DNA of 53,872 nt from Patescibacteria group bacterium. Its GTDB lineage: Bacteria; Patescibacteriota; Minisyncoccia; Phycocordibacterales; JACZSL01. Below, in pieces: positions 51,822-52,747 of this stretch. The notes beneath the pieces are model-generated. The model saw only the letters and a program-made list of their open reading frames with translations. It was not told the DNA's origin and made no database searches. The first letter of the stretch is position 1, and every line of letters begins with the position of its first letter. Made by a program: the position numbers and the translations under genes. The stretch is taken from contig JACZSL010000003.1 of the NCBI GenBank assembly GCA_022574205.1, positions 1-53,872 on the forward strand, in the 5' to 3' direction.

Positions 51822-51988
51822 TTATATCAAAATTGTCGCTCGATTGTTTGCAACCTCTAGAAGACCACGCTCTACATCGAAAGTCTCGTGGTCAGCATCA
51901 TGATTTTCTTTTACAGTTATTGTGCTTTTTTGCGAGTTGTGATGAGTGGCGTATGGTTAGCCATAATAGTAAGTTCCACTTCACTTCC
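51822..51988 (-). pseudogene. atpC: ATP synthase epsilon remnant (N-terminus deleted, frameshifted)
   Basis: [17 protein letters not shown][frameshift at 51924][33 protein letters not shown]. Confidence 0.8.
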
Positions 51989-52747
51989 CGCCTGAATAAA
52001 TCGAAACACATTATCCATAAAGAAGAGAACGTCCTTTCCACCTTCGTCACGAAAATTCTCCGCTATGGTAAGACCGGAGAGCCCAACACTCTGCCTGGCG
52101 CCAGGAACTTCGTTCATTTGTCCAAAGACAAGCGCGGTTTTGTCCAGAACACCACTTTCAGCCATTTCATGATATAAATCGTTTCCTTCGCGCACACGCT
52201 CACCAACACCAGCAAATACAGAGTAACCACCGTGTTCTGTTGCAACGTTTCGTATAAGCTCCTGAATCAGAACTGTCTTTCCAACACCAGCTCCACCAAA
52301 GAGTCCAACCTTTCCGCCTTTGATAAACGAAGTCATAAGGTCGATTGCTTTTATACCGGTTTCAAATACCTCTGCTTTCGTTTGTAGTTCGGTAAATGGT
52401 GGTGCGTCTTGGTGAATTGAGCGCCGAGGAACGTTCGGGTCTATTTCTCCTTTGCCATCAATCGCTTCTCCAAGGACGTTCAACATGCGACCAAGAGTCT
52501 CTTCCCCAACTGGGACCGATATTGGCTTCCCTGTATTTAGAACACTCATTCCGCGCTTCAGTCCTGCAGTGTCATACATGGCAACACACCTAACACGATT
52601 AAGGCCGAGGTGTCCTGCCACTTCAAGCACTATTTTGTTTTTGCCCGCTTTTTCTATTTCAAGAGCTGTGTTTATTTCCGGTAAATCTTTTTCAAAATAT
52701 ACGTCGACGACCGGACCAATGATTTGTTTTATTGTACCTTTTTGCAT
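51977..52747 (-). pseudogene. atpD: ATP synthase beta subunit truncated at residue ~257 and fused to atpC
   Basis: GGAGVGKT and GERVREG present; similarity stops after FIQAGSEV; no PSAVGYQPTL or DELSEED region. Confidence 0.9.

Follow-up and report, generated by a model that had tools for sequence, protein, structure and literature searches.

Probable pseudogenisation by deletion of an F1Fo ATP synthase operon in Patescibacteria from marine sediment

Organisation of the locus

The window analysed here is a whole deposited contig of 53.9 kb, with the remnant of an ATP synthase (atp) operon on its minus strand. Read along that strand, the contig opens at the 3' end of the window with an atpA-atpG spacer (53797..53872) in which TTCAACT occurs three times, followed by atpG, the gene for the F1 gamma subunit (52882..53796). 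The latter is full length and apparently intact, encoding 304 aa as in its relatives and scoring 286 bits in a profile search against the TIGR01146 cutoff of 194. A spacer of 134 nt (52748..52881), within which there is a promoter-like TCGACA-16-CATAAT, leads to an open reading frame of 276 aa (51917..52747) that was called by the gene finder and is present in NCBI nr. This frame is a fusion of parts of atpD and atpC. Its first part, atpD' (51977..52747), holds codons 1–257 of the beta subunit, including the N-terminal barrel and the P-loop nucleotide-binding domain, with GGAGVGKT at residue 151 and the Walker B motif LFFMD at residue 241; neither the C-terminal domain nor the remainder of the nucleotide-binding domain is left. 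The fused frame matches positions 2–258 of the 462 in TIGR01039 (E = 1.7e-115), and at 386.5 bits it falls below the curated cutoff of 462.85. PF22919 is present in the 462-aa beta subunit of an intact relative, and the fused frame has no C-terminal helical domain.

From 51976 onward, atpD' runs in frame into atpC at about codon 29. The first piece of atpC (51926..51976, minus strand) ends in (R)KK, and the second (51822..51925, minus strand) is out of frame with it, ending in NRATILI at the original atpC stop (51824–51822). The two pieces are separated by the loss of 1 nt at 51926/51925, in or adjoining an A-run at 51931–51926, which changes AAAAAAGGAACA to AAAAAAGCACA. The complete N-terminal beta-sandwich of the epsilon subunit (PF02823) is thus not encoded in any one frame, as only residues from about 29 onward remain and these are split. 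An earlier note on this DNA had placed the end of beta at FIQAGSEV, near residue 257, with an epsilon-like continuation, and had proposed a loss of 1 nt after it; the open reading frame, the profile match and a DNA alignment to an intact relative agree on the former, and for the latter the next frame reaches the atpC stop and the same alignment concurs.

The first gene downstream of the remnant is bcp, for a thiol peroxidase (51347..51814, minus strand), which is intact and scores above its profile cutoff. The TATAAT proposed as its −10 element is present at 51826–51821, within an extended −10-like TGATATAAT (51829–51821) that ends 6 nt before the bcp ATG. This site is conserved across all alleles and lacks a visible Shine-Dalgarno sequence. 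A consensus promoter scan did not call the proposed −10, and promoter-like sites were no commoner than in shuffled sequences; the scan thus lends no support to the earlier suggestion that the atpC 3' end may persist because it contains this element. If used, the putative −10 would predict a leaderless bcp mRNA. The remainder of the window carries housekeeping genes (Ddl, UvrABC, a two-component pair, DnaK/J, RpoA, AlaRS, MnmA and LeuRS), among which the AlaRS frame (28883–30688) is shorter than is typical of bacteria at 601 aa, comprising the catalytic core and the second additional domain. A terminator-like hairpin lies at 49431–49470, between the gene for an RND pump and a gene of 91 aa.

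Comparison with intact relatives

A search of a set of 5.8 billion proteins found the closest beta subunit to the fused frame to be a full-length protein of 462 aa (P0001) from a Patescibacteria MAG, which is 99% identical. For DNA comparison and for the sizes of deletions, the reference is the contig that encodes P0001, JADFKC010000006.1 of GCA_022565145.1 (MCH8049997-9; hereafter L001). Its genes are atpB-E-F-H-A-G-D-C and then bcp, with genes for an AI-2E transporter and for an RND pump after it, the same order as is seen in the window. Positions 8934–10771 of L001 align to 53796–51977 of the window at 95.9% identity, and the ~9.7-kb downstream flank (L001 11642–21327; window 51990–42304) aligns at 99.5%. 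Between these, 884 bp of L001 are absent from the window, comprising the beta gene from codon 258 to its end, a 182-nt spacer and the first ~28 codons of epsilon. Both epsilon pieces of the window are matched (tblastn) by the intact 79-aa epsilon of L001. Syntenic orthologues are intact in L001, L002 and L092–L101, and the window has disabling lesions, which makes the locus a unitary pseudogene.

The deletion is bounded by a short direct repeat. L001 has the 12-nt CGGGAAGTGAAG at both ends of the missing stretch (12/12 nt), encoding A-G-S-E in beta and P-G-S-E in epsilon in the same codon phase, and a single copy is left in the window at the junction (51979..51990, minus strand; the repeat itself reads 51990–51979). 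The proposal that the deletion went through GSE-coding microhomology is therefore upheld as far as the repeat is concerned, but the two bases that follow it in the window are TG, as in atpD, where all the sampled atpC alleles have GA. The ancestral atpC allele may have differed at these bases; otherwise the join was no clean collapse of the repeat.

Several differences among the alleles lie outside the deletion. The epsilon subunit of the intact lineage (L001 11572–11811; L092–L101) has 79 aa, consisting of the N-terminal sandwich without the C-terminal helical domain, and is labelled a hypothetical protein by NCBI. The atpG-atpD spacer is polymorphic in length: an 18-bp palindromic insert, CAAACAGCTTTACTGTTT, is found in L001 and in run X3 at the point corresponding to window 52817/52818, where the window has none, and a further variant skipping 47 nt (window 52803–52851) is found in runs X1, X2 and X35. 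Divergence from L001 jumps at the atpC stop, from 0.5% in the flank (42304–51821) to 4–9% in the atp part (51822–53796). Most of the divergence in the atp part is at synonymous sites, and the pattern suggests that recombination has left a mosaic around the operon.

Recurrence of the junction and further reduction

Seven independent contigs (L083–L087, L090 and L091), which represent several studies and six or more samples, carry the identical junction and frameshift. One is a Logan contig (L086, SRR12886643) and the others are from MEGAHIT assemblies (SPIRE/ENA); L083 is 35 kb long. From 52378 downstream they are 99.2–100% identical to the window. At 90% identity the fused protein falls into one cluster with proteins of 182 aa and 162 aa from other assemblies, which are encoded on these contigs. 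In run X1, a Logan k=31 contig crosses the junction with 0 mismatches at a depth of 11, where the flank has 9.85, and Logan contigs of runs X14 and X15 likewise span it. Neither JGI metagenome contigs nor GTDB species representatives contained the junction pattern or the pattern upstream of atpG, and among the representatives the nearest gamma subunit has only 55% identity. Whether the junction might be a mis-assembly, as had been raised as a check, is answered by the eight contigs and the perfect Logan span at flank depth: it is genuine.

All seven sister contigs are reduced further than the window. Each has an additional deletion of 617 bp between 10-nt AAAGCAGAGG repeats (10/10 nt), which joins atpG at 52986 to atpD at 52368, and so fuses a 76-nt piece of atpG (53061..52986) to about codon 127 of atpD. 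Both copies of the repeat are present in the window, the left-hand one in atpG (52986..52995, minus strand; 52995–52986 as read) and the right-hand one in atpD (52369..52378, minus strand; 52378–52369 as read). The sister contigs also lack atpB, E, F, H and A and about three quarters of atpG, and upstream of the atpG piece they carry 174 nt of filler that ends in a terminator-like hairpin; the filler had no match among the sequences gathered for comparison. Their flanks are collinear with L001 1–5226, which holds genes for a methyltransferase, bPH_2, HisRS and others, and with L001 from 11642 to its end. As both flanks are syntenic, atpB through most of atpG must have been lost in situ. The hairpin that closes the filler (L083 9995–10021) and that at 49431–49470 of the window share the stem AGAA(T/C)CCTTGC...GCAAGG(A/G)TTCT.

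Low-depth contigs of run X36, a library labelled metatranscriptomic (WGA), span the junction (51828–52007) and the atpG piece (52986–53061), which reflects either read-through transcription or DNA carry-over.

Eroded positions, selection and allele divergence

Conserved positions of beta had been described as eroded, in the sequences LMTSF, ARQSV and AENF. Of these, ARQSV is a lesion, but LMTSF is common to the intact L001, and AENF to L001 and L002. The lesion is at codon 220 (AGT, Ser; 52088..52090, minus strand), whose aligned counterpart in solved beta subunits is the second Arg of PGARMRV. Arg is found at this position in L001 and L002 and in all 109 homologues with a locatable motif (120 were examined). 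The equivalent residue of E. coli, beta-Arg246, is phosphate-binding and conserved among all species, and its substitution cuts F1 ATPase activity to ~1% (PMC3268026). Position 220 is polymorphic among the remnants, with Arg retained in L090 and L091, from which it follows that the change to Ser arose after the 884-bp deletion. At beta residue 139 (~52330–52332), Ser takes the place of the conserved Pro of DLMxPF, not only in the window and the remnants but in the intact L001 as well. Only 1 of ~100 close homologues has this substitution, an unusual one for an allele that appears to be functional.

Relaxed selection on atpG was sought by dN/dS and by relative-rate tests, and none was detected. 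Against L001, dN/dS was 0.12 for atpG and 0.05 for atpD', not above the values for the intact pair L001 and L002. Lineage-specific synonymous to nonsynonymous counts were 21:12 against 17:6 (Fisher p = 0.56), with few post-deletion changes visible; in the remnants these are R to S, G to S and the frameshift. The low dN/dS would fit a very recent loss, and is also compatible with atpG and atpD' segments that belong to a functional allele.

The suggestion that the deletion was followed by drift does not hold, as most differences from relatives are synonymous and trace to a divergent allele. The remnants differ from sampled alleles by ~7% in atpC' and ~1.7% in atpD', mostly at synonymous sites and in common to all remnants, and these differences point to an ancestor allele that was divergent, functional and lies outside those sampled. 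Three-taxon tree shapes disagree between atpG and atpD, and L090 bears an L088-like conversion tract, which together indicate that the population recombines.

The upstream end of the contig

Among the eight contigs that bear the junction, the window is the sole one with an undeleted 5' half of atpD and a whole atpG. The earlier observation that atpG appears intact therefore stands for the window contig, but its linkage to the junction is found in no other assembly and it may belong to a chimeric end. The contig stops ~10 nt past the expected atpA stop, in a spacer that varies between strains and lies 1.9 kb beyond the junction. Two allele types are seen at this atpA-atpG boundary, the genes abutting or overlapping in L001 and L002, and being separated by a spacer of ~84 nt with three copies of TTCAACT in the window, L088 and L089 (compared over window 53797–53872, L088 860–945 and L089 1–121). 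The final 76 nt of the window have no match to L001 or L002 and were considered as a second breakpoint; this was rejected, since in L088 and L089 the same sequence is the spacer after an intact atpA.

Two readings of this end can be weighed. The window may be a true early intermediate, with the junction beside a whole atpG and atpD 5' half, or the junction is real and the last ~1.5 kb (~52379–53872) come from a co-occurring intact sister strain, mis-joined through ~380 nt of shared atpD. We put the second reading at slightly below an even chance. It would mean that the true genome resembles L083–L087 and that the intact atpG beside the fusion is a product of assembly. Its case begins with the seven other junction contigs, all of which carry the 617-bp and upstream deletions, and with run X1, which has 98% of the flank words and 43% of the atp-part words and in which the dominant contig is the remnant form. 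The window-type haplotype of atpG and the atpD 5' half is in no run examined (at most 58% of its words), and contigs with at least 98% identity across 52382–52498 are absent from all runs examined. The place where the contig ends is also suggestive, as is the fact that atpG and atpD' have dN/dS as low as that between intact alleles. Further, the derived Ser is common to the window and the L083–L087 subclade, whereas other remnants with the 617-bp deletion keep Arg; as these Arg-bearing remnants already carry that deletion, on a simple tree Ser arose after it. Assemblies of these sediments are not free of chimeric ends: in SPIRE contig L102, a GC-rich foreign tail (1531–1693) creates a false C-terminal extension. 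That contig encodes P0123, a 485-aa beta with a Walker B D to V change and a new C-terminus, which was considered as a second independent lesion and discarded as a contig chimera. Set against all this, no known allele is closer to the 76-nt atpG piece of the remnants than the atpG of the window, which has 0 differences beyond one remnant-specific SNP, where L001, L002, L088 and L089 have 2–3. The window atpD also has AAAGCAGAGG, an allele that none of the sampled intact copies shows, and there it runs on without a break into upstream atpD, so that a molecule of this lineage with an undeleted atpD 5' half exists. Gene conversion, of which L090 gives direct evidence, would also account for the conflict between Arg and Ser. 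Overall, a true early intermediate and a chimeric contig end are about evenly balanced, and the biology of the lineage is the same either way.

Probable loss of F1Fo in the lineage

Taken together, the locus is in all likelihood a genuine deletional pseudogene of the F1Fo operon, in a marine-sediment population that is Parcubacteria/Paceibacteria-like. On this reading, an 884-bp deletion between the 12-nt CGGGAAGTGAAG repeats, which encode G-S-E in both atpD and atpC, fused the two genes, probably by slipped-strand or microhomology-mediated deletion. A loss of 1 nt then broke the epsilon frame, and the phosphate-binding Arg of beta later became Ser. The same lineage also lost 617 bp between the 10-nt AAAGCAGAGG repeats, and 174 nt of unrelated sequence took the place of atpB through the first three quarters of atpG. 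From this we infer whole-cell loss of F1Fo function, and with it the dispensability of the enzyme. A recent loss of F1Fo had been suspected from the window by itself, and the suspicion is borne out by a near-identical relative that is intact at the locus, by the recurrence of the junction, and by the sister contigs, which have lost atpB through most of atpG.

Other explanations of the locus fare less well. That the atpD::atpC junction is itself a mis-assembly or a sequencing artefact might be thought from its position at a short repeat in a metagenomic contig, and is extremely improbable: a 12-nt repeat is far below the assembler k (for Logan, k=31) and cannot produce such a join, eight contigs, drawn from different samples and studies and made by different assemblers, share the junction and the 1-nt frameshift, and the Logan contig matches across it perfectly at flank depth. 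It is also unlikely, if less so, that F1Fo function is kept through a second intact F-type (or V-type) ATPase elsewhere in the genome. The genome visible to us is limited to 54 kb, and 35 kb in L083, which leaves room for one, but the operon of L001 sits at exactly this locus, and no second atpD, other atp gene or other ATPase was found elsewhere in the 53.9-kb window. In run X1, moreover, atp sequence with at least 90% identity beyond the remnant is seen only at a depth of 2–4 and with mismatches, where the remnant strain has 10–11, so the dominant strain of that run has no close second copy. The fused frame (276 aa; 182 aa in the sisters) could in principle be a new functional protein under selection, as both deletion joints are in frame, the frame is open in all contigs, and a contig spanning the junction is found in a library labelled metatranscriptomic. 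We find this scarcely credible, since repeats that code for the same tripeptides in one and the same phase suffice to keep the joints in frame, the product would lack half of the nucleotide-binding domain and end in a frameshifted tail, the catalytic Arg is gone in most copies, the changes arising among remnants (R to S, G to S) are non-synonymous, and the RNA library may contain DNA.

With deletional loss as the preferred reading, intact and remnant forms can be placed side by side. Both are found in one sample (ERZ27267425), in which L100 has an intact atpC-bcp region and L091 is a remnant, and runs X2, X3, X4, X15 and X29 have loose ends at 51977 that lead on into intact atpD. Given that the flanks are ~99% identical and that intact and remnant strains both occur, the presence of F1Fo is polymorphic in what is apparently a single species, and this species appears able to survive without F1Fo ATP synthase. 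More tentatively, and with the chances rather against it, F1Fo-positive and F1Fo-negative strains of one species might coexist across sediment sites, the latter sometimes in the majority, with the enzyme conditionally dispensable in CPR bacteria other than Saccharibacteria and the polymorphism maintained by niche or host and not transient.

The locus is moderately interesting for CPR biology. Near-isogenic intact, broken and near-erased operons in the same sediments, with the erased form dominating some samples, amount to a natural experiment, and the three diagnostic junctions are markers with which plus and minus strains could be tracked against geochemistry or hosts. There is also a warning here, in that the fused frame has been deposited like any ordinary protein, and pathway calls on such MAGs would score ATP synthase subunits as present.

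Comparison with known systems

The intact operon of L001 is the nearest counterpart. It shares gene order and flanks with the window and its sisters (methyltransferase upstream; bcp, AI-2E transporter and RND pump downstream), and the surviving proteins are close, with beta 1–257 99% identical and gamma 95% identical at equal length. Relative to it, the window is without beta 258–462, the spacer and epsilon 1 to ~28, has a frameshifted epsilon and Ser at the equivalent of beta-Arg246, and carries no genes upstream of atpG on its contig.

To our knowledge, CPR/Patescibacteria lack respiratory chains, and their F-type ATPase might serve for ATP synthesis on a host-derived gradient, for reverse proton pumping or for little at all. 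In the cultivated Saccharibacterium Southlakia epibionticum, Tn-seq has shown all F-type ATP synthase subunits to be dispensable (PMC10633639). The two cases are alike in that a Patescibacterium with no respiratory chain can dispense with F1Fo; the differences are that S. epibionticum was studied in laboratory co-culture, belongs to another class and retains the genes, whereas here they are physically lost in nature. The natural loss fits the Tn-seq result, and extends dispensability to a Parcubacteria-like sediment lineage.

The locus also resembles the deletional pseudogenes of host-dependent bacteria, in which short repeats (12 and 10 nt here) flank the lost sequence with one copy left, the loss is stepwise, and neighbouring genes stay intact. 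It is in kind an ordinary case of short-repeat pseudogenisation. What sets it apart from the usual examples is its target, the ATP synthase, together with a preserved series of stages, as intact, part-deleted and near-erased alleles have all been sampled naturally.
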